Part shown: positions 15,307 to 59,319 of the stretch, one piece after another
How positions within the stretch are numbered: position 1 is the stretch's first letter
How the letters are laid out: every line of letters starts with the position of its first letter
Assembly: GCA_965208105.1 (NCBI GenBank)
Contig: OZ242318.1
Coordinates: 1,024,001-1,088,000, forward strand
Source of the DNA: Candidatus Latescibacterota bacterium
Lineage (GTDB): Bacteria; Latescibacterota; UBA2968; UBA8231
Direction: 5' to 3'
DNA length: 64,000 nucleotides
The notes under the pieces: generated by a model
What the model saw: only the letters and a program-made list of their open reading frames with translations
What the model was told of the DNA's origin: nothing
Databases searched by the model: none
Position numbers and translations under genes: made by a program

Positions 15307-15340
15307 CGCGCCTCAGATCCAGATCTTGCTTGCCAATGTC

Positions 15341-15432: not shown

Positions 15433-15478
15433 GTTGGCGGCGCGCCCCCGTCACGGCGAAGCGCTCGCAAACCCACTT

Positions 15479-16513: not shown

Positions 16514-16603
16514 CTGATTACCCCCCTTTGCTTAGAAAACCGCAATTTGCTTTTGTGCATGATTTGCCGGTGTGGGGTTGTGGGACAACCTTGCGCCGCT
16601 TTC

Positions 16604-16696
16604 CTGTAACGTCTTACCGATTGCCGAACTCGCCGAAGGCGAGTTGCCGACAGGCCAGGCCGCCAATGCGCCGTAGCGGCGAACGATTTGTTATAT
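16604..16696 (-). repeat. attC site
   Basis: ctgtaac..gaactcgccgaaggcgagttgccgacaggcca..gttatat. Confidence 0.85.
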
Positions 16697-16708
16697 GAAG
16701 TGGGGTCA

Positions 16709-17275: not shown

Positions 17276-17318
17276 ATACGCCAAGAGGACGGTTCAGTAG
17301 GTCTTCACACCCGATTTC

Positions 17319-17408
17319 ATATAACGTTGTGCCGGTTTGCGAACCCGCGAAGCGGGTTGCCGGAGGCCAAGGAGCGTTAGCGACGCAGCGCAAACCGTGC
17401 TGTTATGT
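17319..17408 (-). repeat. attC site
   Basis: atataac..cggtttgcg aacccgcgaagcgggtt gccggaggccaa..cgcaaaccg..gttatgt. Confidence 0.92.
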
Positions 17409-17435
17409 GCTTCAGGCTGACGCGGCGGAGTGGGG

Positions 17436-17627
17436 TTACGAAGCTTTGTGCTCTTTACTAACGGGCCGGCTCTCGCGCCTCTTGGAATGAGACCAGTCTA
17501 TAACCCCGTTGGCATATGCACGCTCTCTTTCGCGGAGCATTTCGCCAAGGCGCTTCACGTCAAAGCTGTGCTCTCGAGCAATATCCTCCTTGGTCTTCCA
17601 CAAGGCGGCTATTACTTCATCCTTCAT
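17436..17627 (-). CDS. Small putative antitoxin partner of the PIN toxin (cassette)
   Basis: 63 aa, MKDEVIAALWKTKEDIAREH.FD. The start overlaps the read-through stop of the toxin (TGATG). Confidence 0.65.
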   Translation of the reverse strand: MKDEVIAALWKTKEDIAREHSFDVKRLGEMLRERERAYANGVIDWSHSKRRESRPVSKEHKAS

Positions 17628-18103
17628 CAGGGTAAGTCTCCTATCATTTCCTGCGGAGTGCCGATCTCCGGACACGGATGCCCATGCTCAGTACAGAGTG
17701 CTCAAACCCGTGGCTTGAGCAGAGCATTGTCAATGTGCTTGAAGTTCCAGGTGAGAAGATAATCGACAGTGTGCACAACCGATAGGGCAATATGGAATGC
17801 GTCATCAGCGGCACTAATGGGTAGCGGACCAGGATGCACGAGCCTACCAGCAAACTCGATAACCTGATCAGACACGGCCAGTAATGGAATACCCTCAAGA
17901 TGCGCCATTCTGCGCTGTGCAGCCTCTGGATCGCCACGGTTGGCTTCCTCTAGCACCAAGGCTGAAGTGCAAAGGTCGAAGTCCTGGCGCTGGTGATTCC
18001 ACCACGACACCGTCACCTCCTGCCAGGCCGCCACCAACGCACTGGGCGATGGCCGCGCTGTCAGGTAACTGACGATCGATGTCTCGATGTAAAGCGACGG
18101 CAT
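17627..18103 (-). pseudogene. PIN-domain (VapC-like) toxin with premature TGA at 17702-17704
   Basis: LYIETSIVSYL..DAFHIA..YLLTWNFKHI. The frame continues past TGA as ALCTEHGHPCPEIGTPQEMIGDLP*. Confidence 0.8.
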
Positions 18104-18143
18104 GGGAATAAACCTGAGAATAGATCTGAATTCATCCTATTGC

Positions 18144-18231
18144 ACATAACGTTCTCGCGGGCTGCGAACCTGCCGCAGGCAGGTTTCCTGCGAAGGCCGA
18201 ATGGCCCGAGCCGTGGGTGCTCGTGTTAAGC
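18144..18231 (-). repeat. attC site
   Basis: acataac..gaacctgccgcaggcaggtt..gaaggcc..gtgttaagc. Confidence 0.85.
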
Positions 18232-18243
18232 GAAGCGGCAGGC

Positions 18244-19320
18244 TTACCAAGGGCCGATCTGTGCTCTAAATCTGGCCTCTTCCATCGGCGGACCCAGCCC
18301 GAGCATCGAGCATAACCTATCGTAGTGAGCCACGGCCCAACCTCTTCGCCAGTCAGGGAAGGCTTGTCCTTGCCAGTGGACTGATGAGCCAACGAGCTCG
18401 GCCCCCCATGTCAGTGAGGAGAGAGCCCAAGCGTGGTAATCAGCTGCCAGACGATGGAGTCGCTCCCAACAATCGTCTGGAAACGCGCGGTGGGTCTCAT
18501 ATCCATCCTGAAATGCACCGAAATATCGACGGTCCAGACCCAGAATAGAGGCATACAGAAGCGAAATCTCCAACGCGCCATCACAAATCTCAATTGGCCC
18601 GAAGTCAATGCACCCTGATAGACGAAAACCATCCGGCGTCCTGTCCAATATGAAGTGCTCTTCCCACGGTTCCTCACTTGCCAGTCCGGGCGGAAACAGC
18701 GGATCATCCGGCGGACGAGCCAGGTGTCTCTCAGCCCTTGAAAACAAACTCCTTACGTCGAGCTCCAGACTTTCTAGAATTAGACAAACTCTGTCCAGCT
18801 CATGCGCCACTCGCTCGCGACGCCGATCTAGGTGGTAGAGAGGGTCTGAGCGATGGTCATTGACCCTGGCGGATAGTTCAAGATGGTCGGCAGCAGCTAG
18901 AAGCGAACTCCCATCTGCCGTGTGATAACTCGCCATCCCCTCCCCAAGACCACAAAAGAGCTTCAGACGTTCAACTTCATCGACTTCCTGCCAGAGCAGA
19001 TCGAGGCGTTTTCCAGGACACTTTTCCGTAATGAGGTACGACGCGTCCAGCGACAGATCACGTTCGCACCAGGTAATAACCCTTGGCGTCGGAAAAGCTG
19101 GCTCTACCTCCAGGAGTCGATAGTCTTCCTCATCTTCCTTGAAGGCGAGAAACTGGAGAGCGTAGGTATCATCCAAATAGTAGATGACTTTCTCGTTCCC
19201 TCTCCCTTCAGATTCTATCTTGCTCGGATCTGGAATTGAGTGGCGAGCACAGATCTCGGTAATGTCCTCGCGAGTCAGACGCTCTCTAAAATCGTCCTCT
19301 GGCCGCCCTATGCGTTCCAT
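18244..19320 (-). CDS. APH/kinase-like fold protein (cassette)
   Basis: FPTPRVI..YLITEKCPGKRL and SGCIDFG. The HGD catalytic loop is not recognisable. Confidence 0.65.
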   Translation of the reverse strand: MERIGRPEDDFRERLTREDITEICARHSIPDPSKIESEGRGNEKVIYYLDDTYALQFLAFKEDEEDYRLLEVEPAFPTPRVITWCERDLSLDASYLITEKCPGKRLDLLWQEVDEVERLKLFCGLGEGMASYHTADGSSLLAAADHLELSARVNDHRSDPLYHLDRRRERVAHELDRVCLILESLELDVRSLFSRAERHLARPPDDPLFPPGLASEEPWEEHFILDRTPDGFRLSGCIDFGPIEICDGALEISLLYASILGLDRRYFGAFQDGYETHRAFPDDCWERLHRLAADYHAWALSSLTWGAELVGSSVHWQGQAFPDWRRGWAVAHYDRLCSMLGLGPPMEEARFRAQIGPW

Positions 19321-19350
19321 CGGCTGACATCCTCTCAAGCCTGCCGTTTC

Positions 19351-19454
19351 GCTTAACATTTACGCCGGTTTGCGAACGCCGAGCTGGCCGAGGCGTTGCC
19401 CGAAGGGCCAAGACGCCCGCAAGGGCGGCGCAGCGCAACACCGTGCTGTTACGC
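19351..19454 (-). repeat. attC site
   Basis: gcttaac..ccggtttgcgaacgcc..ggcgttgcccgaagggccaa..accgtgctgttacgc. Confidence 0.9.
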
Positions 19455-19481
19455 GCTGGTCTGTCTCAATCAATCTCGTGG

Positions 19482-20453
19482 TCAATCAAGCTCCTCGATG
19501 TTGCGTCTAATACAATCGAGTACGAGATCAATTCTGGAGTCGGGGAAAGATGCACTTCCCCACGCGTTGATGTAGAGAGACGGCGTTCCAAGACTGAAAA
19601 TATTGCGTGCTGCCGCGAACGCTGGGATTGCCTGCAATTCCCAATCTCTCAGCGGCCGAATCTCCTGGTACCCCTTGAGGAAGGCCTCCGCGTTCTCCTC
19701 GGGTGCCTTCCAGTACATGACCTCCGTGAAGTAGGTCGCGACATCATACACGCGCCAACCCAACCCGCAAAAATCGAAATCCAAAAAGCTCATTGCGCCG
19801 CTTGGGCTTACTTTCGTGTTTGACGCGCTCACGTCACCGTGCAGAAGCCCATAAAACGGCTTCTCCTGCTCCAGGCTGCAAATTCTGGGCTCAAGGATCG
19901 CGCAGACCTCCTTGAGGTAGGCGACGGACTCCGCCCGATGAGGTACTGCCTCCCGGAAAGCCTCAATGGGTCGTTGTACCATCATGTTGAAATCAATGCA
20001 CGGACGGTTGATCGCTGCCTTCATTGAATCGGCAGCCGAGTGTATCCTGGCGATTTGTGAGCCCAACTGCGCAACTGTCTCCACACTGGGTGTCCGGCTG
20101 AGATGATCCCCATGTATGTATGCGAACAATACGCCGTGACGCAGGCCTTCAGGCGCTTCGAGCGCAAGCATTCGGGCATCGTCTTTTGGCCGAATTGGTG
20201 GCCCAACAGACACACCCTCCCTATCAAGGTGTTCAATCAGATCGAGCTCAGACTCGATCTCGGCTGAATTTCGGCTGAGATGTTGATAAACACAGAGAAC
20301 GAAATCACCTTCGGAAGACCACACACGGTAGGTGTCACGAATTGTACCCTTGATCAACTGACAGTGCACCTGAGACAGACGAAATGCGTCCTCGATGATC
20401 TCAGAGAGGGCGTTCGTACATAGAAATGACTTACTGATCGGTAGCGGATTCAC
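19482..20453 (-). CDS. Phosphotransferase, type II homoserine kinase/APH family (cassette)
   Basis: LLHGDVSASN and FLDFDFCG..WRVYDVA. Confidence 0.85.
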   Translation of the reverse strand: MNPLPISKSFLCTNALSEIIEDAFRLSQVHCQLIKGTIRDTYRVWSSEGDFVLCVYQHLSRNSAEIESELDLIEHLDREGVSVGPPIRPKDDARMLALEAPEGLRHGVLFAYIHGDHLSRTPSVETVAQLGSQIARIHSAADSMKAAINRPCIDFNMMVQRPIEAFREAVPHRAESVAYLKEVCAILEPRICSLEQEKPFYGLLHGDVSASNTKVSPSGAMSFLDFDFCGLGWRVYDVATYFTEVMYWKAPEENAEAFLKGYQEIRPLRDWELQAIPAFAAARNIFSLGTPSLYINAWGSASFPDSRIDLVLDCIRRNIEELD

Positions 20454-20501
20454 TTCATCAATACTTCACCAATGTCTGATCAACGGCTGGAACGGACTTG
20501 C

Positions 20502-20600
20502 GCGTAACGTTTTCACCGGTTGCGAACGCCGAGCTTGTCGAGGCGTTTCCCGTAGGGACAAGGCGCGCACTCGCCGCAGCGCAACACCGTGCTGTTACCC
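20502..20600 (-). repeat. attC site
   Basis: gcgtaac..ggttgcgaacgccgagcttgtcgaggcgtt..cgcaacaccgtgctgttaccc. Confidence 0.9.
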
Positions 20601-20631
20601 GATGGCGGCATCAAGGAGAAAGCTACCGAAC

Positions 20632-21174
20632 TCAAACACCTGGCCGCCCAAACTCAACCGAGGCCGTATCAGTCAGCTCGATCTCGTCACCCAGAGCGTG
20701 TTCTGCAACACGAGACACAACAGAAGCTGAAATATCTTCGAAAGGATACGTGGCGTGAGCATCACGAATAAGCACAACTTCCAGGCTCCGGGTCAAGGCC
20801 CCTCGAATCGTTGCACTGACACACATCTCGGAGAGCAGACCGGCTACCGCAATACGGTTCACACCATTGCGTGTGAGAATTTCTATTAGATCAGTGCCGG
20901 CGAATCCGTCGTCCCCTGTTTTGCGCAACACCAACTCCTCCGGGTTTAGCGCTAACTTCGGATGGATGAACCACCCAGGCGTTCCGGGCTCGTCAAGAGT
21001 ACCCGGTGGACCGTCGTTCTGTAGATGGACCACAAGAGTCCCAGCAGATCTTGCGGCGGCCAATAATGCGACGAGGTGCTCTAGAACCACGGCAGAGTCA
21101 GGGACTGCTCGTTCTCCTTCCAACAATCCTTGCTGCGCATCAACTATGAGTAGGGCTGTGATTGATTTTTTCAT
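20632..21174 (-). CDS. Isochorismatase family cysteine hydrolase (cassette)
   Basis: ALLIVDAQ, RKTGDDGF, AGLLSEMCV, DAHAT. Confidence 0.9.
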   Translation of the reverse strand: MKKSITALLIVDAQQGLLEGERAVPDSAVVLEHLVALLAAARSAGTLVVHLQNDGPPGTLDEPGTPGWFIHPKLALNPEELVLRKTGDDGFAGTDLIEILTRNGVNRIAVAGLLSEMCVSATIRGALTRSLEVVLIRDAHATYPFEDISASVVSRVAEHALGDEIELTDTASVEFGRPGV

Positions 21175-21253
21175 GCAAGTCTACCATTCACTGGCCTGGT
21201 CCACCTCCATGAGAAGTATGTCATTTGCAGGCTTTCTCGATCATGCCGCTTTC

Positions 21254-21334
21254 GGGTAACGTTTTCGCCGTGCCCGAACCGCGTAGCGGTTGCGCGAAGG
21301 GCGAAGCCCGAAGCCGGGCACGGACGTGTTATAG
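21254..21334 (-). repeat. attC site
   Basis: gggtaac..cgtgcccg aaccgcgtagcggtt gcgcgaagggcgaa..cgggcacg..gttatag. Confidence 0.9.
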
Positions 21335-21380
21335 GATGTGCCAGACGGGGGTAAAGGGGAAACCCTTTCTCCGACACATG

Positions 21381-21944
21381 TCATGCTTCAAGCGACATCC
21401 AATGCCTTCGGCAACTGAACGCCAGTTCATAGAGTGCAGCGAAATCCTGATCGTCATCGGAGAATAGTTCTGCAGCTTTGCTATAAGTGACGGTCCGGAC
21501 TTCAATGATGGAGCTGTCACGATCAGAATCTGACGGAGAGCCAACCCGATCTGCATCTGCGCACGAAACAACTCTCACATGAATGGGGTGGGGAAAATTA
21601 GGTAGCCTGGGTTGGGGTTCTCTTGATGTACAATGGTACATGCCCATCGGATAAACATTGCTCAAGGCTGCACCCGTTTCTTCCATGACCTCTCGATGCG
21701 CAGCCTGCAGCCAGTCCTCTCCAAGTTCCAAGGTGCCCCCAGGCAACACCCACCTACCATTCTCGCGCATGGTCACCAGGCACTCGTTCTCCGAGACAAA
21801 CGGAATTACATATGACGAGCCGCAGCACGAAGCTACGATTTCGGAATCGAAGTTGACGAAATCGATTCCCTCTCCCCTACGACTCTGTAACGCCGGAAAA
21901 TCTCCGGCCAATCTGTCGAAATCGGCCTCAGCCAGAAACTTCAC
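21381..21944 (-). CDS. NUDIX hydrolase (cassette)
   Basis: Nudix box GGTLELGEDWLQAAHREVMEETG. Confidence 0.9.
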   Translation of the reverse strand: MKFLAEADFDRLAGDFPALQSRRGEGIDFVNFDSEIVASCCGSSYVIPFVSENECLVTMRENGRWVLPGGTLELGEDWLQAAHREVMEETGAALSNVYPMGMYHCTSREPQPRLPNFPHPIHVRVVSCADADRVGSPSDSDRDSSIIEVRTVTYSKAAELFSDDDQDFAALYELAFSCRRHWMSLEA

Positions 21945-21967
21945 ACCATCTCCTCATCTGGCATTTC

Positions 21968-22051
21968 CTATAACGTTATGCCGGTTGCCGAACTCGCGAA
22001 TGCGGTTGCGCGAAGGGCGAACGCCCGGAGCCGGGCACGGACGTGTTATGT
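21968..22051 (-). repeat. attC site
   Basis: ctataac..gaactcgcgaatgcggttgcgcgaagggcgaa..gggcacggacgtgttatgt. Confidence 0.88.
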
Positions 22052-22080
22052 GTTTTGTGCCCTGCGGTGGGGTGGGTGGG

Positions 22081-22356
22081 CTACTTGAGGGTCAGTTCCA
22101 AACGTCGACCAAGCGCGTGTGTCACCTTGCGCAAAGTCGACAGCTTGATGTCCTCGGCGTGATTCTCCATACGCGATATTGCCGTCTTTTTGGTTCCAAT
22201 GCGCTCGGCAAGTTCATCCTGGGTCAAGCCCGCGGCTTCTCGGGCTTGCCGAAGTAGGACTCCAATCTCGAAATCTCGATAGCCCTCCTCAAATCCTTCG
22301 GCAAAACGAGGATCCGTCTTCTTCCTGCGCGAAATGTATTTCTCCACATCACTCAT
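22081..22356 (-). CDS. higA: HigA-like XRE HTH antitoxin (cassette)
   Basis: LRQAREAAGLTQDELAERIGTKKTAISRMEN. Lies directly downstream of the RelE-like toxin. Confidence 0.85.
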   Translation of the reverse strand: MSDVEKYISRRKKTDPRFAEGFEEGYRDFEIGVLLRQAREAAGLTQDELAERIGTKKTAISRMENHAEDIKLSTLRKVTHALGRRLELTLK

Positions 22357-22716
22357 GACGATGCTCCTCTCTTGCGGCCTAGATATTCTAGCCGATAGCG
22401 CTCAGCTCGACGAATTTCACCTCGGTCGGTCTTAGCGGTCTTCTTGGAATACCCGTGTGTGACAACGAGGTCGCCGCCGTACACAAAAAATGAAAAGAAC
22501 CGATAGGCTCCGCTGGACGTTTTCACCCGGCACTCCCAGATGTCGTCGGTGCCTACTAGCTTCTTGAGATATTGTCTCGGAACGCGGGTCAATTCGTTCG
22601 ATCAAACGAAAGACCCACAATACCTTCTGAGCATCACTCCCGTCGAGCCTGTCGAGAAACTCCCGAACAGGACATCTGCTGTCCTTCGTACGGTAGAATT
22701 CAATGGATCTGCCCAC
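22353..22716 (-). pseudogene. higB: HigB/RelE (gp49-like) toxin, frameshifted near 22587
   Basis: The N-half (IEFYRTKDSRCPVREFLD) and C-half (YLKKL..IWECRV..YRFF..THGYSKKTAKT) are in different frames. Confidence 0.8.
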
Positions 22717-22722
22717 GCATTT

Positions 22723-22751
22723 ATGTTAACACGCACGTTAACCTAAGTCAA
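22723..22751 (-). promoter_or_regulatory. TA cassette promoter with palindromic operator
   Basis: Minus strand TTGACT-17-TAACAT overlapping GTTAAC-N6-GTTAAC. Confidence 0.7.
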
Positions 22752-22764
22752 CAGGGCACATTGC

Positions 22765-23040
22765 ACATAACGCTTTGCCGGTTTGCGAACCATTGGTTCG
22801 CATAACGGCCGCCAAGTCCTGCTTATCTGAAACGAAGGTACCTATTGCGGAGAGCAGTCGCAACTAAAGTCCTCAAGACCGTATTTTCTCTTAACTCCTT
22901 GATATAATTTGAAATAAACCGATTTTCAACAATTCCGCTCCGCGCGGCGGCGAGCGATCCATCAGGGACCCTCCTTTTCCCTTGCGAAGGTTCTCTGCGA
23001 ATTGCATAGTACCAGTATCGGTCCCTTATGTTCCCGTTCA
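22765..23040 (-). promoter_or_regulatory. Conserved array leader copy 1: attI-like site, Pc-like promoter, IHF-like box, divergent promoter
   Basis: Homologous to 56087-56365. Minus TTGCGA-17-TACCTT (22863-22835), minus TATCAAGGAGTTA (22904-22892), plus TTGCGA-17-CATAGT (22982-23010). Confidence 0.75.
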
Positions 23041-23112
23041 TCCAGACAGGTTCGGGTATTTCGCGAAGTTATCAAAGCGGGATAAACCTGCATTTCCCAA
23101 GGAGGTCGGGCC

Positions 23113-29729: not shown

Positions 29730-29772
29730 ATTGTTCTTCCCATTTCGCAGACCCATAAAGGCCACAGTTTCA

Positions 29773-29870
29773 CCTGATGTTTGTGGGTTTATGAACCCCG
29801 AGCTTGTCGAAGGATTGCCGAAGGCCAAGACGCCCGGAGGGCGAGGCAAGCGTAAACCGTTCGGTTACCC
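29773..29870 (-). repeat. Degenerate attC site
   Basis: ggtttatgaaccccgagcttgtcgaaggattgccgaaggccaagacgcccggagggcg..cgtaaacc..gttaccc. Confidence 0.8.
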
Positions 29871-29882
29871 GATAGCGTCATC

Positions 29883-31490: not shown

Positions 31491-31529
31491 GCCGTCGATT
31501 TTGTCCTGCGCCGTCCGTCCGTCCTCGTC

Positions 31530-31620
31530 GGGTAACCTTCTCACCATTTGCAACCCCGCCTAAGAGAAGTCTCGAAGGCCAAGGGGCGAATGTCCCTTGG
31601 CGATAATGGGTACGATATAT
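31530..31620 (-). repeat. Degenerate attC site (GAT-type R'' end)
   Basis: gggtaac..gaaggccaaggggcgaatgtccc..aatgg..gatatat, the same subtype as 52448-52537. Confidence 0.75.
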
Positions 31621-31694
31621 GAAGTTGGAATCTGGTTGTAGGTAAGAATTGTCTCAAGTCCCGGCGTGATAGCTCAAATTGCCCGGTGGGCTCA

Positions 31695-49621: not shown

Positions 49622-51109
49622 TCAGGTCGATTGACGGTCCGCCCCGGGCCGGCCGAACTCCCAGGAGTGGAGCGTCGCCCTCATCATCTCGAAGCGCACG
49701 GTGATCTTCGTTCCGGCCAGCCCCGATAGATCCGCACTGCCGCGCCAGCTCACCTCGCGCCCGAACTCGTCCCCGGCGAGCGGGTCGCAGTCGGCGAAAT
49801 CAAACCTCTCCAGTGGCTCTGTTTTTTCCGGCGGATATGGCAGATCCTTGTAGAGCGCGGCGCGAATCCAACCGCCCCGTTCGGTGGAATAGTTGAGTCG
49901 CAGCGGCCCGCCTTCCGCCATGCTGCCGATCAGCGAAAAGCTGCCATGGTCCTCCGCGCGCAGGCCGCCGATCCGGTCCCGGGGCCAGGTAGCCCAGGCG
50001 ACATGGCTGCGCTTGTCCCTGTCGAGATAATAGCCTTCGTTGTGCCTGGCATCGCTCGCCCCGTACGGCACCGCCATGCGGCCGTCTTCCAGAACCAGCA
50101 ACTCGGTCCCGACGTACGGCCCCCCTTCCTCGCCGCTTCCGCTTCCACCACAGGCCAGGACCGGAGTTCGCCCCGCCCGCGTCCAGTTGATGCCATCGCG
50201 GCTAACCGCCAGGAACACATCCACCTTGTCGTTGAGCTGGTCGAAGACCGAGGGAAACATCATGTGGAGACCGGCGCCGGGATAGGGCGAATAGGCATTG
50301 GTGTAGAAGGAGTGGCTGGGTCCGTCCTCCAGGCCGGGCACGACGATCGTTTCCGGTTTGGCCCACCGGCGAAAATCATCTGTCTCGGCGCGCCCGATGG
50401 CGCGGCGGCCGTTGGCGTGGGTGCGAAAAAACCCCACGTAGGTGCCCCGGTCGCCGTCGTAGCGGCAGATGGTCTGGGTATCGCAGAACATCTCGAACAG
50501 GATGTCCTCCAGCGCGGTCCAGTTGACGCCGTCGGGAGAGACCGCACCGCGATGGGTGCCGATCAGCTGTACTTCCTTCCGCATCTCATCCCTCGAGTAC
50601 CCCGCCTCTCCCAATTCGCGCCACCGGCGCAGTCCCTCTTCAGCGGTGATCTCCTTGCCCTTGTCGAACCACTGGGGGCAGTGGCCTATCCGTTTGTAGC
50701 GCTCGGCGGGAGGTGCGCTCGGATCGATGAAGGTGCAGCCGGTCCGCACCCCCGGTCCTCGCCGGCAGATATTGTTGAGGTGGGAACCGTTGAATTCGAA
50801 CAGTCCCAGTTCGGGCCGTGTCCACGACAAGCCTTCCTCGCTCTCGGCGTAGCAGAGCAGCTGATCGTTGATGCCCTTGCCGCACTGCGTTCCGTACCAC
50901 ATCCGGTACTTGCCGCCGTCGCGGAACACCGTGACATGGCTCAGGCCGCCTTCCCATGGCATTTCGTCGGTGAGGACAGGTGCCGAGCGTTCGGCCTGGT
51001 TGAATATCAACCGCACGCCCCGGGGAGGATGATAGTGGTAGGCCCTGCCGTCCGGCTCGTAGCCGGCGAAACCGGAATAGATGTCGGCGTAGTCAAGTAA
51101 CGGGCGCAT
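49622..51109 (-). CDS. Hypothetical glycoside hydrolase-like (beta-propeller) protein
   Basis: Repeated Asp-box-like motifs (SEEGLSW, SPDGVNW, SRDGINW) and YRMWY. Confidence 0.6.
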   Translation of the reverse strand: MRPLLDYADIYSGFAGYEPDGRAYHYHPPRGVRLIFNQAERSAPVLTDEMPWEGGLSHVTVFRDGGKYRMWYGTQCGKGINDQLLCYAESEEGLSWTRPELGLFEFNGSHLNNICRRGPGVRTGCTFIDPSAPPAERYKRIGHCPQWFDKGKEITAEEGLRRWRELGEAGYSRDEMRKEVQLIGTHRGAVSPDGVNWTALEDILFEMFCDTQTICRYDGDRGTYVGFFRTHANGRRAIGRAETDDFRRWAKPETIVVPGLEDGPSHSFYTNAYSPYPGAGLHMMFPSVFDQLNDKVDVFLAVSRDGINWTRAGRTPVLACGGSGSGEEGGPYVGTELLVLEDGRMAVPYGASDARHNEGYYLDRDKRSHVAWATWPRDRIGGLRAEDHGSFSLIGSMAEGGPLRLNYSTERGGWIRAALYKDLPYPPEKTEPLERFDFADCDPLAGDEFGREVSWRGSADLSGLAGTKITVRFEMMRATLHSWEFGRPGADRQST

Positions 51110-51276
51110 CGCATCTCCTTTCGGTCGGGGCTCCGTTAATGTATTTGTCTGGAAAAAATGCTGCGATACTTGGCGCGGTGTCACTCATTGATCACGGGGG
51201 GCCCATCCGCCAAGGGTTCTCCCAACCGCAATTCCCCCACCATACTGATCTAAATTGATTGGATTCGAATATCCTT

Positions 51277-52392
51277 CTAACGCACGAAGGACCGCTGAAT
51301 CTCCTCGGGCGTCCGGTGGGAATACTCGAACGCATCTATATCCAGTATCGGATGAGCCGCGGCGATCGACTCATCCACGTCGCATCCAAGGCCGGGAGCC
51401 TCGGGCACGAGGATAGCGCCCCCTTCTTCCTGGATGCATCCCGGCGCCACGTCGTATCGCCAGGGGACGTCATCCGCCTTGTGTTCGAGGAAGATGCAGT
51501 TGGGGATCGACGCGAGCACGTGCAGGTTCGCCATCTCGATGATCGGCCCCACGGAGCCGTCGTGAGGGGCCACGGTCACCGATTGGGCCTCGGCCATGGC
51601 CGCCAACTTCTTGAGCTCGGTGATCCCGCCCAGGCGGGTAGTCTCCGGCTGCACGATATCCACCAGGTTGCGCGCCAGCAGCTCCGAAAAGGCCCACTTG
51701 GTCGCGAAACGCTCTCCCGTTGCCAGTGGAACCGCGACCTTCTCAGCAACCTTCGCGAAAGCCTCGACATTCTCCGGCACCACGGGGTCCTCCAGAAACA
51801 TGGGACGGTACGGCTCGCATCCCCGTCCGAGCTGGATGGCGGCGGACGGGGTCATTTCCGCGTGACAGTGAACGCCGATCTCCACCTCGTATCCCACCGC
51901 CTCGCGCAAGCTTTTAATCGTTTCGATCTTCGGCCCGCACTTGAAGAACCTGTAGCCGCGATCGATCAGCCTCTCCGCCTCCGCCGGCGTGCTGGCGTGA
52001 CCGTACACCGGAATTCTGTCCCGCATCTTGCCGCCCAACAGCTCCCAGACCGGAACGCCGAGCGCCTTGCCCTTTATGTCCCACAGGGCACAGTCGAGAG
52101 CGCTGATCATCCCACCACGCACCGACCCCGTTACCCCGTGACCGTGCAGGATATCGTAGAGCCTGAGCCAGAGTCTTTCGATCTGGAAGGGGTTTTCGCC
52201 GATCACGAAGTGTTTCATCTCCTGGATCGCCTTCTCCACGATAAACGGCCAGCCGCCTCCTTCGCCTACGCCGGTCACGCCCTCGTCGGTGAAAACCTTG
52301 ACGAACAACCAGTTCCGTCCACGGGGGCGCGAGTTCATCGACGAACCCTCGTTCGCGTTGACCAGATAGGTTTTAACATCGGTGATCTTCAT
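51277..52392 (-). CDS. Mandelate racemase/enolase superfamily dehydratase (galactonate dehydratase-like)
   Basis: MKITDVK, ALWDIKGKALGVPVWELLGG, FLEDP, ATGER, GGITE..APH. Confidence 0.9.
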   Translation of the reverse strand: MKITDVKTYLVNANEGSSMNSRPRGRNWLFVKVFTDEGVTGVGEGGGWPFIVEKAIQEMKHFVIGENPFQIERLWLRLYDILHGHGVTGSVRGGMISALDCALWDIKGKALGVPVWELLGGKMRDRIPVYGHASTPAEAERLIDRGYRFFKCGPKIETIKSLREAVGYEVEIGVHCHAEMTPSAAIQLGRGCEPYRPMFLEDPVVPENVEAFAKVAEKVAVPLATGERFATKWAFSELLARNLVDIVQPETTRLGGITELKKLAAMAEAQSVTVAPHDGSVGPIIEMANLHVLASIPNCIFLEHKADDVPWRYDVAPGCIQEEGGAILVPEAPGLGCDVDESIAAAHPILDIDAFEYSHRTPEEIQRSFVR

Positions 52393-52447
52393 GCTGGTGG
52401 TCTCCTTATTTCATGCAACCGTCGGACTTGGGTGTTGTTAATTCTTC

Positions 52448-52537
52448 GCATATCGTTTTCACGGTTTACGAACCCACGAAGTGGGTTGCCGCAGGCCAAG
52501 GGGCGAATGCCCCGCAGCGTAAATGGATGTGATATAT
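52448..52537 (-). repeat. attC site (GAT-type at both ends)
   Basis: gcatatc..ggtttacg aacccacgaagtgggtt gccgcaggccaa ggggcgaatgcccc..cgtaaa..gatatat. Confidence 0.88.
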
Positions 52538-52604
52538 GAAATGGGACTCTTCATTACCTGTACCAGAGCTCTACTGCTGGAGCTGCCGGGGAGGGTGCCG
52601 AGCA

Positions 52605-53261
52605 TCAGTCGTGGTGGCGTTTGTAATAATGTCTGATCTTTGGGTCGCGGAAGCGAACGACCGTGTTGTGGCCCCAAACGGCCAAGCCAACTGCACCGCG
52701 CGACTCCCCAGGCAGCGTCAACCGATTGACCAATACACCGTTCACGTAGCTGGTCACTGAGCGATCACGGACCTTGAGGACAATGTCATATTCGCGACCA
52801 GGCTCCATAACGAAATCAACGACATCGAGTTTGACATCCTCACGAGTTTCCTCGTTCCGACGGACGACGACCATGGTCTTCCAACCCGTCAGGTATGTCA
52901 GGAAATGCGACGAAACACCGTCGTCGGAGATTCCAAATACGAGTTGCGGACCGGACCCCTTCTCAATGGTGGCCTGCACCTTGAATTCATAGGCAGCCCA
53001 GGTCCCATCTCCCTGGACAAGCCGCCCGCGGCTTGCCTGGCCCGTATCGGCAATGATGGCGTCGCCCTCGCGACGCCATACGGAAGGGGTGAAAGGGCCT
53101 TCACTGGCATGCCATCCGGCCAAGCCCTCACCCTCTACCATTGACTCCCACGGCTTGCCGATATCCGCTCGACCGTAGTCGTTCTCAAAGGAAGGAGTTC
53201 CGACAGCGGCACTCACTGTAGTTAGTAGGCCCAGGTAGATTGCGTAGTGAATTTTCTCCAT
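52605..53261 (-). CDS. Secreted DUF1080-like domain protein (cassette)
   Basis: Signal peptide, WESMVEGEGLAGW..YEFKVQ..VRFRDPKIR. Paralog of 31695-32243. Confidence 0.7.
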   Translation of the reverse strand: MEKIHYAIYLGLLTTVSAAVGTPSFENDYGRADIGKPWESMVEGEGLAGWHASEGPFTPSVWRREGDAIIADTGQASRGRLVQGDGTWAAYEFKVQATIEKGSGPQLVFGISDDGVSSHFLTYLTGWKTMVVVRRNEETREDVKLDVVDFVMEPGREYDIVLKVRDRSVTSYVNGVLVNRLTLPGESRGAVGLAVWGHNTVVRFRDPKIRHYYKRHHD

Positions 53262-53301
53262 TACATGGTCTCCGGTCGGTGATTCCGGTTCTTCCCATTT
53301 C

Positions 53302-53398
53302 ATATATCGTTCCGCCGGTTTGCAAACCCCGAGCTTGGCGAGGGGTTGCCGCAGGCCAAGGCGACGTAGCCGCCGAAGCACAAACCGTGCTGTTATAC
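53302..53398 (-). repeat. attC site
   Basis: atatatc..ccggtttgcaaaccccgagcttggcgaggggttgccgcaggccaa..caaaccgtgctgttatac. Confidence 0.9.
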
Positions 53399-53411
53399 GT
53401 CGTGATATTCA

Positions 53412-53879
53412 TTACTCTGTTGAATGCAACTCGTCTCTGATCCTACCACCAATCTCATTCATCTGATCTTCACTGACACTTTCCTCCTGAGAAACACCCA
53501 GATAAGCAAATACTCTAGTGCTTCGCCGGTCGGCCGGTTGATTAGCCATTCGAGGCACAATATGGAAGTGTACATGCGGATGATCCTTGGCCTCGGCAAA
53601 CTGGATCACATATGTTTTCACGCATCCGACTACAGCCTTAAGAGACAAGGAAACACGCCGAATCAAGGGCCCCAATTCTGCGGCTTCCTGCTCAGTGAGC
53701 TCATCAAGCGATTCGATGTGTCGTTGCAGAACCAACACCAGCCATCCGGGCAATGAGGTATCGAACGCATGCGCAACATCCCAGAACCTGGTCTGGTAAA
53801 TGCTGTCGTAAAGTGGCGCCTTCCCCAGCCTTCTTCGTGCAGTCAATTCGCACGTCTTGCACGTGTCACTACCGTTCAT
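53412..53879 (-). CDS. HIT family hydrolase (cassette)
   Basis: CKTC near the N-terminus and the HPHVHFHIVPR histidine triad. Confidence 0.9.
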   Translation of the reverse strand: MNGSDTCKTCELTARRRLGKAPLYDSIYQTRFWDVAHAFDTSLPGWLVLVLQRHIESLDELTEQEAAELGPLIRRVSLSLKAVVGCVKTYVIQFAEAKDHPHVHFHIVPRMANQPADRRSTRVFAYLGVSQEESVSEDQMNEIGGRIRDELHSTE

Positions 53880-53907
53880 GTCCGACCTCTCATTGCATCT
53901 CCATGTC

Positions 53908-53996
53908 GTGTAACGTTCTGCCGGTTTGCGAACCTCGATGTGGTTGCCGAAGGCCAAGGGGCGGCAGCGCCTCAACGCAACACCGTGATTTTAGCG
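53908..53996 (-). repeat. attC site
   Basis: gtgtaac..ccggtttgcgaacc..ggttgccgaaggccaa..cgcaacaccg..tttagcg. The core G is mutated. Confidence 0.85.
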
Positions 53997-54006
53997 GAAG
54001 TTTCAC

Positions 54007-54222
54007 TCAATTCAATAGATCGCGAAATTGCTCAACGGAAAGACCCGCGTCTCGAACAATTCCGCCCATTGTGAACGCATTGACCGGATTGCTTCGGGGA
54101 ATAGTCAAGATCCGGGTACCGTCACTCATGACGATGTGTTTACCCTGGCGAATTATCCGAAATCCAGCCTTTTCCAAGGCCCTTACGGCCCGCAGGTGAT
54201 TGACCTCTGGAATCTTGGGCAT
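54007..54222 (-). CDS. hicA: HicA toxin (cassette)
   Basis: ALEKAGFRIIRQGKHIVM..LTIPR..IVRDAGLS. Confidence 0.85.
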   Translation of the reverse strand: MPKIPEVNHLRAVRALEKAGFRIIRQGKHIVMSDGTRILTIPRSNPVNAFTMGGIVRDAGLSVEQFRDLLN

Positions 54223-54223
54223 C

Positions 54224-54421
54224 CTAAAGCGTCAGCTCCACCTCTTTGACTTGAGCGTCTCCTAGTAGTTCGTCGACCGCTGCAAGGTATTCGCGTATAG
54301 CCGCTTCGATGTTTGCAAGCGCTTCCGCCTCGGATGCACCTTGAGACCAACAACCGGGAAGCCCAGGAACAGAAACACTCCATCCCTCATCAGATTCGAG
54401 CAACGCGACTTTGTACTTCAT
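54224..54421 (-). CDS. hicB: Short HicB antitoxin (cassette)
   Basis: VSVPGLPGCWSQG.SEAEALANIEAAIREYL. Confidence 0.88.
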   Translation of the reverse strand: MKYKVALLESDEGWSVSVPGLPGCWSQGASEAEALANIEAAIREYLAAVDELLGDAQVKEVELTL

Positions 54422-54542
54422 TTCGACACCTTCCTTACTTGCGGCAATAGAGCACCATTTGCCAAATGAGGATCATAATTCAATAAATTCTTGCGAACTT
54501 CCGTGCATCACGGCGATGTAAGAATTTTCCACGTCCTATTTC

Positions 54543-54637
54543 CGCTAACGTTTCGCCGGTTTGCGAACCTGGCGCAGCCAGGTTGCTGAAAGCCAAGCCG
54601 CCTGAAGGGCGGCGTAGCGAAAACCGGTGTGTTATGT
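54543..54637 (-). repeat. attC site
   Basis: cgctaac..ccggtttgcg aacctggcgcagccaggtt..gccgcctgaagggcggc..aaaccgg..gttatgt. Confidence 0.92.
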
Positions 54638-54644
54638 GCCGTGC

Positions 54645-55493
54645 CTACCCAACGTACGCTCGCCCAGATGATGTTTTCGAATGATCGGATTCCAGGGAAA
54701 TTTGAGTGATGGTGTCGTGGGCGCGTCCCGTGCGGTCATGGTGCACATACACGATGTCGTCAATGACGATTCGCCGATTACCCGGATACTTGCAGGTCAA
54801 GTCCCCGCCCCGGAAATACTGCCCATCATAGCGCCGGAAGAAGACGGTCCTTCCTCCTTCTTCAACGAAGGCTTCCACGAGCTCTCCACCGTTTGGTGAG
54901 GACAAGCCGGGTATGGGATCCAAGATACGAATACAACAAAACCTGTTGTCGCCGATAGTCACATCGTAGGTACCAGCACCGAGACCTTGCGCATCGGTCG
55001 TCTTGTAGGCGCCATCACTCAGGCGTTCGTACCGCCCATCGTCAACTATTCGACGATTCATAGAACCGCCCCAGTTGGCTTCGAAGGTCCTGTCGCCCAG
55101 CAATTCGAACACGCGTCTCCCACGCAAAGTCTTGACCACTCCAACCCATCGGGCACCCTGGTCGTCCAACAGTGCGTACATGTACCCGGGATTGAATTCT
55201 GTTGGCCAGTCCTTCCGATTTGCATACTCTTGCAATCGAAGCTCGACACAATCTGTGTCACGGAGCCTTGCTGGACCCACGGACACGATTTCGGTAACCC
55301 CTGTTAGCTGGAGCGTATCCGATTCATACGCGGCCCACATGCAGTGTTCCCCCAGCCTAGGTACGGCAAACCACCACTGTAGCTCCGGGCAGCCGACTTC
55401 GTCTACTCTCTCGCAACTTTCCTCGATCGTGACCTCAGGCCGCGTCAATGGAAACCCACGACTCGTCGCGTTGCTGGCGTTCTCAGGATTCAT
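54645..55493 (-). CDS. Hypothetical protein (cassette)
   Basis: 282-aa ORF filling the space between two attC sites. RBS-like GGAG upstream. No family recognised. Confidence 0.7.
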   Translation of the reverse strand: MNPENASNATSRGFPLTRPEVTIEESCERVDEVGCPELQWWFAVPRLGEHCMWAAYESDTLQLTGVTEIVSVGPARLRDTDCVELRLQEYANRKDWPTEFNPGYMYALLDDQGARWVGVVKTLRGRRVFELLGDRTFEANWGGSMNRRIVDDGRYERLSDGAYKTTDAQGLGAGTYDVTIGDNRFCCIRILDPIPGLSSPNGGELVEAFVEEGGRTVFFRRYDGQYFRGGDLTCKYPGNRRIVIDDIVYVHHDRTGRAHDTITQISLESDHSKTSSGRAYVG

Positions 55494-55549
55494 GATGGGA
55501 TCTCCGATATCGCCTTGGGAGGTCGATGTCTGTGTGCTTCTGGCATGCC

Positions 55550-55646
55550 GCCTAACGTTTCGCCGGTTTGCGAACCCCGAGCTTGGCGAGGGGGTTGCCG
55601 CAAGCCAAGGCGCGCAAGCGCCGAAGCGCAAACCGTGCTGTTAGAT
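55550..55646 (-). repeat. attC site
   Basis: gcctaac..cggtttgcgaaccccgagcttggcgagggggttgccgcaagccaa..cgcaaaccgtgctgttagat. Confidence 0.92.
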
Positions 55647-55670
55647 GAAGCTCTCTCAGAAGTCAGATCT

Positions 55671-56042
55671 TTACGCGTCAATGGCTTCACGTGTAACGGA
55701 TGGTTCGAAAAAACGCTCCTGGAACTCCGTCAAAGCCAGGATCTGCTCGTCTGAGTAGTCTCTACCGGCAGGTACGACAATGAGCTTATCATCATCGTCG
55801 TCCGATCGTTGAATGACGGCGATACATCTGCCTGTAAAAGCCTCTATCGGTTTGAAGACACCCAGGATATAGGCGTCCATATTTTCTCCGTCAGGCGCCG
55901 GAACGTCCGGAAGAAATCCGTAGTTGACAGGATAGATGAAGCCCGCTTCAGGATGCCTGGAGCCAAGGGGTCGATCAATCGTAAGATCGACCATTTCTCC
56001 GATGAACTTCCTTGCATCCACGAAATTCTCCGTCATGGTCAT
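55671..56042 (-). CDS. Small inorganic pyrophosphatase-like protein (first cassette)
   Basis: IDRPLGSRHP..YPVNYG..DGENMDAY..DDDDDKLIV. Confidence 0.8.
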   Translation of the reverse strand: MTMTENFVDARKFIGEMVDLTIDRPLGSRHPEAGFIYPVNYGFLPDVPAPDGENMDAYILGVFKPIEAFTGRCIAVIQRSDDDDDKLIVVPAGRDYSDEQILALTEFQERFFEPSVTREAIDA

Positions 56043-56086
56043 TTAATCTCCCAGCCATGTTGAAGTGAGGCAACGCTGCTCCGAGT

Positions 56087-56365
56087 TTCATCTAACTGCC
56101 TATATGCGAACCATGGTTTCGCATAATGGCCTCCAAGTGCTGCTAATCTGAAACGAAGGTACCTATTGTCGAGAGCGGTCGCAACTAACGCCCACAATAC
56201 TTTAAATTCGCGTAACTCCTTTATATTTAAATAGATAAATCGATTCTTCATCGATTCTGTGCGACGACAACCGGTTCATCAGGAATCCTGCCGGACCCTT
56301 GCGTACTGTCCCAGCGAATTACATAGTACCGGGTACCGGTATCGGCGCCGAATTTTCATTCATTG
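56087..56365 (-). promoter_or_regulatory. Conserved array leader copy 2: attI-like site, Pc-like promoter, IHF-like box, divergent promoter
   Basis: Core GTTAGAT (56096-56090), palindrome TATGCGAA-ccatggt-TTCGCATA, minus TTGCGA-17-TACCTT (56184-56156), minus TATAAAGGAGTTA (56225-56213), plus TTGCGT-17-CATAGT (56299-56327). Confidence 0.78.
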
Positions 56366-56378
56366 AGGAGGAACTGGT

Positions 56379-56825
56379 ATGATCCGAGCCGTCACCTCGG
56401 AGGACATGATTGCTTGCGCACGTCTATTCGCGAAGGTCTTCTCCGAATGGCCGTACGAGGAATCGTGGACCATTGCCCAAGCCCACGACTACCTCGATCG
56501 GTTCTGGAGGTTCGATTCCGAGCATTGTCTCGTCGCTCTTGACAAAGATGAGGTTATCGGAGCGATGTTCGGATACTGCTACCCCTGGCAGAACAGAATC
56601 AACTACTACATGCAGGAGCTCTTTGTCGAGGCGGATCGGCGGCGGTCGGGCCATGGTCGAAAGCTGGTGCGCCATCTGCTCGACGGGCTTGGAGAATCAG
56701 GTACATCCATGTCCCTGATCGCCAATGAGGCAACGCCGGCTGCCGCCTTCTACCAGGAGCTTGGACTGCGGCAGCATAGATACTACAAGTTCTACTGTGG
56801 TACGGTGAACAGGGGCGACGAGTAG
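56379..56825 (+). CDS. GNAT family N-acetyltransferase
   Basis: VFSEWPYEESW, YMQELFV..RRRSGHGRKL, AAAFYQELG. Confidence 0.88.
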   Translation: MIRAVTSEDMIACARLFAKVFSEWPYEESWTIAQAHDYLDRFWRFDSEHCLVALDKDEVIGAMFGYCYPWQNRINYYMQELFVEADRRRSGHGRKLVRHLLDGLGESGTSMSLIANEATPAAAFYQELGLRQHRYYKFYCGTVNRGDE

Positions 56826-56955
56826 CCCGTCGTATAACCAGGTCGAATTCTCAGGGTCATGATTCCTCCTGAAGATTATCAGCGCACATCTTGACATCGC
56901 CATTTAAAATTATGGATTCAATGACGGTCGTTTCATTCTGCTCGAACTCGTTGGA

Positions 56956-59319
56956 GTGAACCACTCGATGCTGGGAATAGCCATATCCGCCGTTCTGTTC
57001 ATGGGCATGGTGCTGCCGACGCGCGCCCAAATTGAAAAGAGCGATCTCTACATCGGCCTATTGCTCGACTTCGGGGCCGAGGCGACCGGTGCGGAGCGGG
57101 ACTTGGCGCTCCTGCAGGAGGAAATCCACAAGGTGCTGGGGGTCGACAAGTCGGTCCATTTCCTCCCCGAGCACATGCGCTTTTCCGCCGGGCACGCAGG
57201 CTATATGTCCCTGGCCAACGACCCGGCGGTCGACCTGATCATTGTCGCCGGGCCGGCCAGCGCGGCGATGCTGGCCGCTCAAGGAGCCCTGCCCAAACCG
57301 ACGATCGCCGTGGGGATACTGGATGTGGAGTTACAGCAGATTCCCCTCGTCGAGCCTGGCGTCTCCGGGGTGCGAAATTTCACCTATGTCCTCGGTACCC
57401 ACTCGATCGAAAAGGACCTGGCGGCGTTCCACCGCATCCATCCCTTTGCCCATCTGGCCGTCGTCGTCAGTGAAAACCTGAAGGGCAGGCTGGATTTCGA
57501 GGGTTTCTTCGAACGCATTGCGGCGCCTTACGGGGCCCAGGTGGAGGTGTTTTTTTGGGGGGAAGAAACCTCTCTACCGACCCTGAACGACGGGGTCGAC
57601 ACGGTCTATCTGGCGGCGGTCTTCGAGCGCTCCCTGGAGGAGGTCGGCCTGCTGGCTGAGGCCCTCGCCGAGCGCAGTCTGCCTTCCTTTGCCATGAGCC
57701 GGTCTTATGTGGATGCGGGAATCATGGCCTGTATCGGCGACGAGAGCGGCCGCGACCATATTTTCCGCAAGCTGGCCCTGATCGTCGAGGGAGTGGCGCT
57801 GGGAGAGGAACTGGCGGCTATGCCCGTGCGGTACAATCTCGACGAGCAATGGGTGCTGAATGCCGCAACGATCCGCCGAATCGGTTTCGACCTCTCGTTT
57901 GAAGCGCTGTTTTCCGCCCGCTTCCTCAAGGCCGACGAACCCACAAGCGACCGCCGCTTGAGCTTGCAGGAGGTTATCGCCGAAGGCTTGCGGAGCAACC
58001 TCGACCTGCGCATTGAAGAGGGCAACCTCGATTTGGCCGGCCAGGATTTGCGCCGGGCAAAGTCGTCCCTGTTGCCCACGGTAGAAACCTCGGCCACAAT
58101 GCTGCAGATCGACCCGGACGCGGCGGAGCGCGCTTTTGGTCAACAGCCCGAGCGCACCGGCGCGGGTACTGGGACCGTGCAGCAGGTGCTGTTTTCCGAG
58201 CAGGTCTTCGCCAGCGTCAAAATCCAGCGCTACCTGGCCGAGGCCGCCCGCCATCGCGCCGATCTGGTCGCGCTCGACGTGGTGCTGAACCTGGCGACGG
58301 CCTATTTCAATATCCTGCTGGCCAAGACCGGGGGGCGCATCCAGGATGAAAACCTCGAGGTCTCGCGCCGCAATCTGAAGATAGCCCGCACCAGAAATGC
58401 CGTCGGCTATGCTGGCGTGGCCGACGTATTCCGCTGGGAGAGCGAAGTGGCTCGGGCCACCCAAGCCTCGATCGAGGCTTTCAACAACCTCTACCTGGCC
58501 AAAGTGCAGCTCAACCGCTTGCTCAACCGGACCGATATCGGCGAGGAGTTCGAGGTGGAGGATGCCCGGCTTTCCGACGAACTTTTTGGCCGCTTCGACC
58601 CGGCCCGCATCGGTCCCCTGATCGACCGCGCCGGCGATGTGGAGATCCTCACCGACTTTCTCGTCGAAGAAGCCCTGCAAAACATGCCTTCGCTCAAGCA
58701 GCTGGCGGCCAATATGAAGGCAGCCGAGCGCCGGCAGCAGATGAACCGGCGGCTCTACTACCTGCCTGCGGTGGCTTTGCGCGGACAGGCCGACTACACC
58801 TTCTGGCGCGCCGGCAAGGGCATGCCTCCGGCCTCCTCCGAGCCCCTCGACGGCACATGGAACCTGGCCCTCCACTTCAGCTATCCCCTCTTTCAGGGCA
58901 ACCAGCGCAAGATCGCCATCGTCCAGACCGCGATTCAGCAGCAGCAACTCCGCCTCCAGGAGGAGAGTCTGCGCCAGCAGCTCGCCCAGGCCGTCCGGGT
59001 GCGGATGACGAACCTGGTGTCCAGGCGCACCAACATACACTTTGCCGAGGTGGCCGCTGCAAGCGCGCAGAAGAACTTTGATCTGGTGCAGGACGCTTAC
59101 GAGAAGGGCCAACTGGCGATCACCCAACTGGTGGATGCCCAACGCGCCGCCCTTTCCGCCCGTCAGGCCGAGGCCGGGGCCGTCTATGAATACCTGGTCA
59201 GCTATCTGCAGTTGGAAAACAGCATCGGAGGCTACACCATGTTCATGACTTCAGAGGAGCAGGAGGCCTTTGTCGGGCGCTTGACGGCCTTCTTCTCCAA
59301 AAGAAAGAATGCACCATGA
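56956..59319 (+). CDS. TolC-family outer membrane factor with N-terminal ABC substrate-binding-like domain
   Basis: The C-terminal ~450 aa form OEP repeats (LSLQEVIAEGLRSN, AYFNILLA, YEKGQLAITQLVDAQ). The N-terminal ~320 aa are periplasmic-binding-like. Confidence 0.85.
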   Translation: MNHSMLGIAISAVLFMGMVLPTRAQIEKSDLYIGLLLDFGAEATGAERDLALLQEEIHKVLGVDKSVHFLPEHMRFSAGHAGYMSLANDPAVDLIIVAGPASAAMLAAQGALPKPTIAVGILDVELQQIPLVEPGVSGVRNFTYVLGTHSIEKDLAAFHRIHPFAHLAVVVSENLKGRLDFEGFFERIAAPYGAQVEVFFWGEETSLPTLNDGVDTVYLAAVFERSLEEVGLLAEALAERSLPSFAMSRSYVDAGIMACIGDESGRDHIFRKLALIVEGVALGEELAAMPVRYNLDEQWVLNAATIRRIGFDLSFEALFSARFLKADEPTSDRRLSLQEVIAEGLRSNLDLRIEEGNLDLAGQDLRRAKSSLLPTVETSATMLQIDPDAAERAFGQQPERTGAGTGTVQQVLFSEQVFASVKIQRYLAEAARHRADLVALDVVLNLATAYFNILLAKTGGRIQDENLEVSRRNLKIARTRNAVGYAGVADVFRWESEVARATQASIEAFNNLYLAKVQLNRLLNRTDIGEEFEVEDARLSDELFGRFDPARIGPLIDRAGDVEILTDFLVEEALQNMPSLKQLAANMKAAERRQQMNRRLYYLPAVALRGQADYTFWRAGKGMPPASSEPLDGTWNLALHFSYPLFQGNQRKIAIVQTAIQQQQLRLQEESLRQQLAQAVRVRMTNLVSRRTNIHFAEVAAASAQKNFDLVQDAYEKGQLAITQLVDAQRAALSARQAEAGAVYEYLVSYLQLENSIGGYTMFMTSEEQEAFVGRLTAFFSKRKNAP

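Follow-up and report, generated by a model that had tools for sequence, protein, structure and literature searches.

An integrase-less attC array headed by an attI-type leader in a Candidatus Latescibacterota genome, possibly served in trans by a distant recombinase

The subject of this report is a cassette array, here called array 2, within a 64,000-nucleotide stretch of a Candidatus Latescibacterota chromosome (the window; G000:C1:1024001-1088000), which forms part of a single-contig genome of 4.85 Mb (G000). Array 2 occupies positions 52448-56096 of the window on the minus strand, where five attC sites bound five cassettes, and almost certainly combines the lack of an integrase gene with a genuine attI-type leader. 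Cassette boundaries were set from the attC cores, and the cargo was examined with Pfam. Cassette 1 (55556-56095) carries a pyrophosphatase-like open reading frame (ORF; 55671-56042) and attC 1 (55550-55646), and cassette 2 (54549-55555) an ORF without a Pfam family (54645-55494/55631) and attC 2 (54543-54637). Cassette 3 (53914-54548) encodes a HicB-like antitoxin (54224-54421; PF15919) and a HicA toxin (54007-54222; PF07927), followed by attC 3 (53908-53996). Cassette 4 (53308-53913) contains a HIT-domain ORF (53412-53880; PF01230, E 3.8e-5) and attC 4 (53302-53398), while cassette 5 (52454-53307) contains an ORF (52605-53261) with a 3-keto-disaccharide hydrolase (DUF1080-like) domain (PF06439, E 9.4e-9). 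The array ends in attC 5 (52448-52537), which scores 98 bits with the covariance model described below, of whose training set it is a member.

Each attC repeat is approximately 90-100 nt long and reads, on the minus strand, as ..TAAC, an L'' box, a variable centre, an L' box and GTTA... The five sites were aligned with nine sites of a second array in the window, array 1 (sites at 13769-22051; n=14). In this alignment the canonical R''-L''...L'-R' fold pairs 87.5% of 279 cells, compared with 77.7% for shuffled columns (0 of 500 shuffles reaching the observed value) and 26-41% for slid partners, and compensatory two-sided changes occur in 10 of the 20 pairs. The canonical fold and this covariation bear out the five attC-bounded cassettes proposed in an initial annotation of the locus, and the cassette ends quoted there, at 55640-55653 and 56083-56096, are complementary at 13 of 14 positions. 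As single-stranded DNA, attC 1 and attC 2 form an R-box stem, an unpaired spacer and an L-box stem; the L stem is present in the minimum-energy folds of attC 3 and attC 5 and absent from that of attC 4. A covariance model of the 14 window sites (R1) finds 90 sites across the genome, nearly all in same-strand clusters. In an Rfam scan of 52300-56500 no attC family was detected, and the two matches returned (E 0.86 and 0.92) were at chance level.

The cores are not uniform. The R' of attC 4 is GAT, the R' and R'' of attC 5 are GAT and ATC rather than GTT and AAC, and the R'' of attC 3 is AAA rather than AAC. Across the window, GAT or ATC replaces GTT or AAC at 53302-53308, 52448-52454, 52531-52537 and 13850-13856, and the variant dinucleotide stays with the downstream cassette: cassette 5 begins with AT and its own R'' is ATC. 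This pattern fits a G|NN crossover. Two further matches to the attC model, at 29769-29873 (E 4.9e-7) and 31527-31623 (E 4.1e-6), are found, again on the minus strand, between the two arrays and may constitute a third small cluster, beside which no leader was found. Within array 1, one attC seems to have been truncated and joined to a piece of sequence that duplicates part of a different cassette of that array (14310-14460, 17590-17660).

Just upstream of the first cassette lies a leader of approximately 160-170 nt (leader 2; 56097-56260, minus strand) that is present in several copies in the genome. Searches with blastn and an nhmmer profile detected five clear copies and one weak copy (3581318-3581485, E 6e-6). 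Besides leader 2, the clear copies are leader 1 (22760-22945, minus strand), which heads array 1 (13769-22771), and those at 2061040-2061214, 2751292-2751464 and 4494105-4494265. Each of the five heads an attC cluster, and four of these arrays are integrase-less. The copy at 2.061 Mb, the main leader, lies between about 50 attC sites (2010546-2060603, the main array) and the sole intI-like gene of the genome (2061252-2062187, plus strand), 0.98 Mb from array 2. This divergent arrangement of intI, attI and cassettes is the classical layout of an integron. A second genome of the same genus (G001), used for locus comparison, holds eight copies of the leader by blastn, and the duplication of the leader that had been suggested at the outset is therefore well founded. 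The leader also stands beside the orthologous intI-like gene in G001, G010, G016, G014 and G011, which together with G000 represent five genera, and its distance from the start of that gene is 70-80 nt in G010 and G016. Leader 2 thus appears to be a copy of the intI-attI intergenic region of this lineage.

An alignment of 13 homologous leaders from the five genera locates the end of this homology. The likeness of all 13 stops exactly after G|TTA, and what is kept across them are three blocks (at 56148-56169, 56177-56186 and 56210-56219 in leader 2), a palindrome and the ..GCAG|TTA end. The point at which the leaders cease to be alike coincides with the GTT at 56096-56094 (minus strand) where the crossover had been placed, and such a loss of likeness right after TTA is what would be expected of an attI crossover. 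The attI-like core (56094-56130, minus strand) comprises this GTT, a 5-nt spacer and an L box, within a palindrome at 56103-56125 that folds at z = -2.8 and whose arms vary symmetrically in other genera. The sequence before the GTT had been described as unlike attC. This holds in that the attC covariance model does not match leader 2, but not for its last 8-nt box before the spacer, GGTTCGCA, which is identical to the L' box of the local attC sites. The box shared by leader and attC sites, GGTTCGCATA (window 56104-56130 and attC L' boxes), may resemble the arm of the E. coli dif site to which XerC binds. The site stands where an attI would stand, heading the array with the integrase-side leader on one side, the first cassette on the other and the crossover in GTT. 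We assign it as such because the divergence point of the 13 leaders, the boundary of cassette identity and the contig joints at 56099 (the last two described below) fall together.

Where intI would be expected, leader 2 faces a GNAT acetyltransferase gene (56379-56825, plus strand), divergent from array 2, whose assignment was confirmed. Between the two lies element X (56252-56356, plus strand), a repeated promoter-like module of approximately 100 nt that points at the GNAT gene. It is common to leader 1 (22944-23050) and has eight further copies in the genome (near 4338027, 4347056, 4348620, 4360204, 4365761, 4366810, 802843 and 794006), with about a dozen among the matches listed in G001. 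At both window leaders, X is found where the main leader has intI and the intI promoter. The majority of copies read TTGACA-17-CATAGT followed by a 12-nt palindrome; they sit 5' of unrelated genes, one of them ahead of the start of a PIN/VapC-like ORF. The junction of leader, X and GNAT gene is retained in contigs of two other samples. The divergent promoter proposed in the initial annotation receives partial support: X is a copy of an element with promoter-like boxes elsewhere, but a consensus sigma-70 scan of 55950-56450 found no promoter. A candidate cassette promoter, TTGCGA-17-TACCTT, was spotted by eye in the 13-leader alignment and is conserved there. We accordingly treat leader 2 as carrying a putative cassette promoter and X a putative outward one. 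A sigma-70 match near leader 1 was dismissed as a cassette promoter, as it falls inside the first cassette. On its distal side, array 2 is flanked by an enolase-superfamily (MR/MLE) gene (51277-52392, minus strand).

Three comparisons bear on whether cassettes have been exchanged at leader 2, the first being with the main array. Cassette 1 of array 2 recurs in first place in that intI-linked array (genome positions 2060508-2061050), and blastn finds no third copy elsewhere in the genome. Between the two copies, the first 55 nt after GTT are identical (55/55), the next 30 nt match at 26 positions, the ORF body is identical over 387 of 387 nt and the attC matches at 63 of 73; past the GTTA of this attC, the arrays are 53% alike. 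The two leaders that precede the shared cassette match in 117 of 160 aligned columns (73%), and their nearest mismatch lies 6 nt from the GTT.

Secondly, Logan contigs of four sequencing runs were compared with 50800-57800; joints between attC sites with sides shorter than 30 letters were ignored, and uncovered parts were counted only where a contig spans them. A 1539-nt contig of run X5 (record 20) follows the window from 56462 to 56099 (28 differences, 16 gaps), through the start of the GNAT gene, element X and leader 2, continues with 787 letters unlike the window, and re-enters it at 54554-54157, that is, at attC 2 into the HicBA cassette. Similarly, a 1347-nt contig of run X10 (record 11) covers 56459-56099, then 779 other letters, then 53934-53718, which corresponds to attC 3 into the HIT cassette. 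The joints lie at most 3 nt from the GTT on the leader side (56099) and inside an attC on the far side, with shorter sides of 255 letters (X5) and 217 letters (X10). Both runs also hold the enolase-type flank and cassettes 5 and 4. Read from these contigs, related strains would possess the same platform with another first cassette, and without cassettes 1-2 or 1-3.

Finally, G001 carries at 5.766 Mb a satellite whose leader aligns throughout with leader 1 and which is the counterpart of array 1. Its first cassette differs from that of array 1 and its second is the same (21974-21335, about 88%), and the likeness between the two arrays begins and ends at cassette boundaries. Within the window, arrays 1 and 2 have no cassette in common, blastn returning only attC-sized matches of at most 116 nt. 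The independent loading of the two platforms inferred in the initial annotation is consistent with this, as it is with the first cassettes that differ between strains at leader 2 and in G001 at the counterpart of array 1. Cassette content is thus not invariant, and we regard it as highly probable, from these comparisons of sequence, that the site has been used in trans.

The sole intI-like gene of the genome would be the obvious source of a recombinase. Its product finds its best protein matches in TIGR02249 (NCBIfam) and VchIntIA (PDB 2A3V), and the tyrosine-recombinase catalytic motifs are present in the alignment. The TIGR02249 score of 234.9 bits lies below the cut-off of 265 for an IntI, and only 18 residues align where VchIntIA has 60 (residues 179-238). 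In six canonical IntIs of the same taxonomic family (350-469 bits), an insertion of approximately 41 residues with a ..RKYP.. motif occupies that place; this insertion is missing from the short proteins. The gene is divergent from attI and the attC array in G000, G001, G010, G014 and G016. The orthologs of G001 (91% identity), G016 (88%) and G014 (79%) are open, and that of G010 has lost its frame near the C-terminus; apparent internal stops in the G016 and G014 orthologs were dismissed as natural stop codons.

A tree of 34 proteins (nine short, six canonical, four Xer and 15 of 80 distant homologs, nine of the latter picked for attC-model matches and six without) places the canonical IntIs in one clade and the short and distant proteins in its sister group, the two together being set apart from the Xer rows at 99/99. 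The distant homologs are approximately 50% identical to the short integrase of G001 and come from other phyla, with no close relatives among the matches listed. The attC model was run on the 32 of the 80 distant loci that have long flanks, and gave 18 matches in nine of them, all on the strand of the gene and downstream of it, with none upstream or on the opposite strand. Members of this family from Desulfitobacterium, Paenibacillus, Thermodesulfobacterium, spirochaetes and an archaeon may likewise head attC-type arrays. In Desulfitobacterium sp. Sab5 (L036 6700-12819) the repeats are unmistakably of attC type, with spacings of 660-2370 nt. Repeats resembling attC were also observed at L070, L071, L107, L038, L085, L057, L099 and L060. 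The short enzyme, which lacks the IntI-specific additional domain (the I2 region near patch III), could be the agent that acts on the leaders and attC sites of G000, an attribution that we make with some hesitation.

Taken together, array 2 is probably a working or recently working insertion platform without an integrase of its own, which would be served in trans by the distant recombinase. Leader 2 would be an orphan copy of attI and its leader, with L box, short spacer, GTT crossover, upstream palindrome and conserved blocks that probably include a cassette promoter from which cassettes would be expressed. The one intI-like tyrosine recombinase of the genome would act in trans, inserting cassettes at the GTT of leader 2 and excising them between attC sites by site-specific rather than homologous exchange. 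The trans-acting integrase that the initial annotation called for thus has a candidate, a single gene that has a homologous leader and some 50 attC sites next to it, although one that carries an in-frame stop and is not a canonical IntI.

Several observations weigh against this reading. In the assembly of G000, an in-frame TAA interrupts the intI-like gene at codon 58, a position occupied by Glu or Asp in four orthologs. Because of this premature stop, the arrays of G000 are probably frozen at present. The absence of the IntI-specific domain from the short recombinase is perhaps more serious, since the available text of one study describes this domain as necessary for cassette capture and intermediates as lacking (PMC7790495), and attC recombination by an I2-less enzyme would be the main weakness of a model in trans. 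The polymorphism between strains is drawn from Logan contigs, which can be chimeric at repeats, and the 779 and 787 inserted letters enter the comparison by their length. The identity of the shared cassette is patchy, with four of 30 nt mismatched close to the start codon and a further 10 differences within the attC, a pattern that a single clean transfer would not predict; gene conversion among the approximately 90 attC sites could be its source. Lastly, there is the empty sigma-70 scan around the leader.

The history of the locus was evidently not one of cassette insertion alone. The enolase-type gene distal to array 2 has a 97%-identical ortholog in G001, which there borders the intI-bearing integron on its distal side, 12.7 kb from the G001 leader and intI, with six attC-model sites between, and the intI side of G000 is syntenic with that of G001. 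Leader 2 is 79% identical to every G001 leader matched at full length, and the main leader 88-91% identical to two of them. This mismatch between leaders and flanks suggests that arrays have become re-associated with flanks, probably by exchange between arrays. The proposal that the platforms were loaded independently after duplication of the leader is therefore supported with the qualification that rearrangement between arrays, to which the shared distal flank points, also shaped the locus. Moreover, a satellite leader of G001 (L028 5827-6218, equivalent to G001:C1:3760826-3761217) is joined to the first ~64 codons of intI, leader and gene start being together 93% like the main leader and gene start of G000; some satellites thus arise by duplication of intI and attI followed by loss of the gene. 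These points concern history, and the evidence of site use stands beside them.

Such a loss is the basis of an alternative in which array 2 is the inert relic of a second, once complete integron that lost its intI by deletion and gained element X and the GNAT gene in its stead. The G001 stub demonstrates that intI can be lost beside a leader, and the broken state of the only intI-like gene of G000 is in keeping with inertness. No intI remnant is found next to leader 2, however: the best match of a window-wide tblastn with the intI-like protein (E = 0.38) falls in conserved non-coding leader. The first cassette at leader 2 differs among strains, and the cassette common to the main array is 100% identical over 387 nt. 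We consider an inert relic, an ordinary cluster of attC sites without an integrase, unlikely; the explanation may give the origin of the array correctly while erring on inertness in the recent past.

A second possibility is that the repeated leaders and attC sites exchanged sequence by homologous recombination or gene conversion rather than by site-specific integration, and that the shared cassette and the strain differences have this origin. The patchy identity of this cassette speaks for such exchange, as does the ample homology offered by about 90 similar attC sites and 5-6 leaders. The boundaries speak against it, with a leader mismatch only 6 nt from the GTT, a likeness at the far end that stops right after GTTA, and strain joints at 56099 and within attC L' boxes. 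The conserved stretches at the joints measure just 8-20 nt, which is short for homologous exchange, and we judge this alternative improbable. Equally improbable is a split integron, in which array 2 is a distal piece severed from intI by chromosomal rearrangement and the leader has no role of its own: the scenario is described in the available text of Cury et al. 2016 (PMC4889954) and accords with the shared enolase-type flank and the syntenic intI sides, but a plain split leaves the severed piece without attI at its head, whereas array 2 is headed by a full leader only 73-80% like the main one, other strains retain leader 2 and the GNAT flank with a variable first cassette, and none of the cassettes of array 2 is in the intI-linked array of G001.

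If array 2 is such an insertion platform, its significance extends beyond a single locus. Copies of the insertion site are spread over the chromosome, an array follows each of them, and strains differ in their first cassette, so that integrons are not confined to the unit 'one integrase, one attI, one array'. As a tentative extension, we propose a multi-platform integron in which a single Xer-like, I2-less integrase from the sister clade of IntI serves at least five dispersed attI sites in trans. Were this true, integron-like gene capture would be older or broader than the definition of IntI permits. A multi-site integron would allow several 'first' cassettes to be expressed at once, and would account for part of the unexplained abundance of clusters of attC sites without an integron integrase (CALINs). 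A recombinase without the defining IntI domain would also make this lineage a natural test of whether that domain is necessary.

CALINs are described by Cury et al. 2016 (PMC4889954), and the IntegronFinder definition asks for at least two same-strand attC sites and no nearby integrase. Array 2 has five such sites, as scored with the covariance model built here, and a TIGR02249 search of the genome gives nothing in the window. It is not a complete integron, since the neighbour of its leader is a GNAT gene and the intI-like gene lies far away. Its resemblance to a CALIN includes its size, five sites being the average given in the accessible text of PMC4889954, and the absence of an integrase gene within kilobases. 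According to the parts of PMC4889954 and PMC9024848 at hand, CALINs are viewed as degraded or severed integrons without a Pc promoter, treated as debris lacking an insertion site, and a search for attI is impossible since attI is unknown for most integrons; the former also allows for the excision of CALIN cassettes by an integrase whose gene lies at another place. Array 2 differs in that it keeps a conserved, multi-copy attI leader and that its first cassette varies between strains. A search of main article texts in a limited library found neither an attC cluster with its own conserved attI leader nor one integrase with several attI sites.

Sedentary chromosomal integrons, such as the Vibrio superintegron and that at Xanthomonas ilvD, share with this system their large arrays of homogeneous attC sites, toxin-antitoxin cassettes and an integrase that is often inactivated by stop codons, as far as the available text of bioRxiv 10.1101/2025.06.18.660453 describes them. 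They differ from the present case, with its one intI-like gene, at least five attI platforms and an integrase without the IntI-specific domain. In Xanthomonas, CALINs occur at conserved loci in about half of genomes, and the same text, in the part available, makes no mention of attached attI leaders. Insertion at attG sites (10.1101/2022.09.11.507474, seen in part) likewise places cassettes away from the integrase gene through an integrase in trans; attG sites are scattered non-att sequences, whereas the target here is a conserved attI paralog reused in several genomes. The recombinase itself resembles canonical IntI in its best matches to TIGR02249 and VchIntIA, in the same position and divergent orientation relative to attI and cassettes, and in its place in a sister clade, and departs from it in the sub-threshold TIGR02249 score, the 18 residues against 60 of VchIntIA and the missing insertion of ~41 residues. 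Array 2 is by definition a CALIN, yet it is a CALIN that keeps an attI platform.

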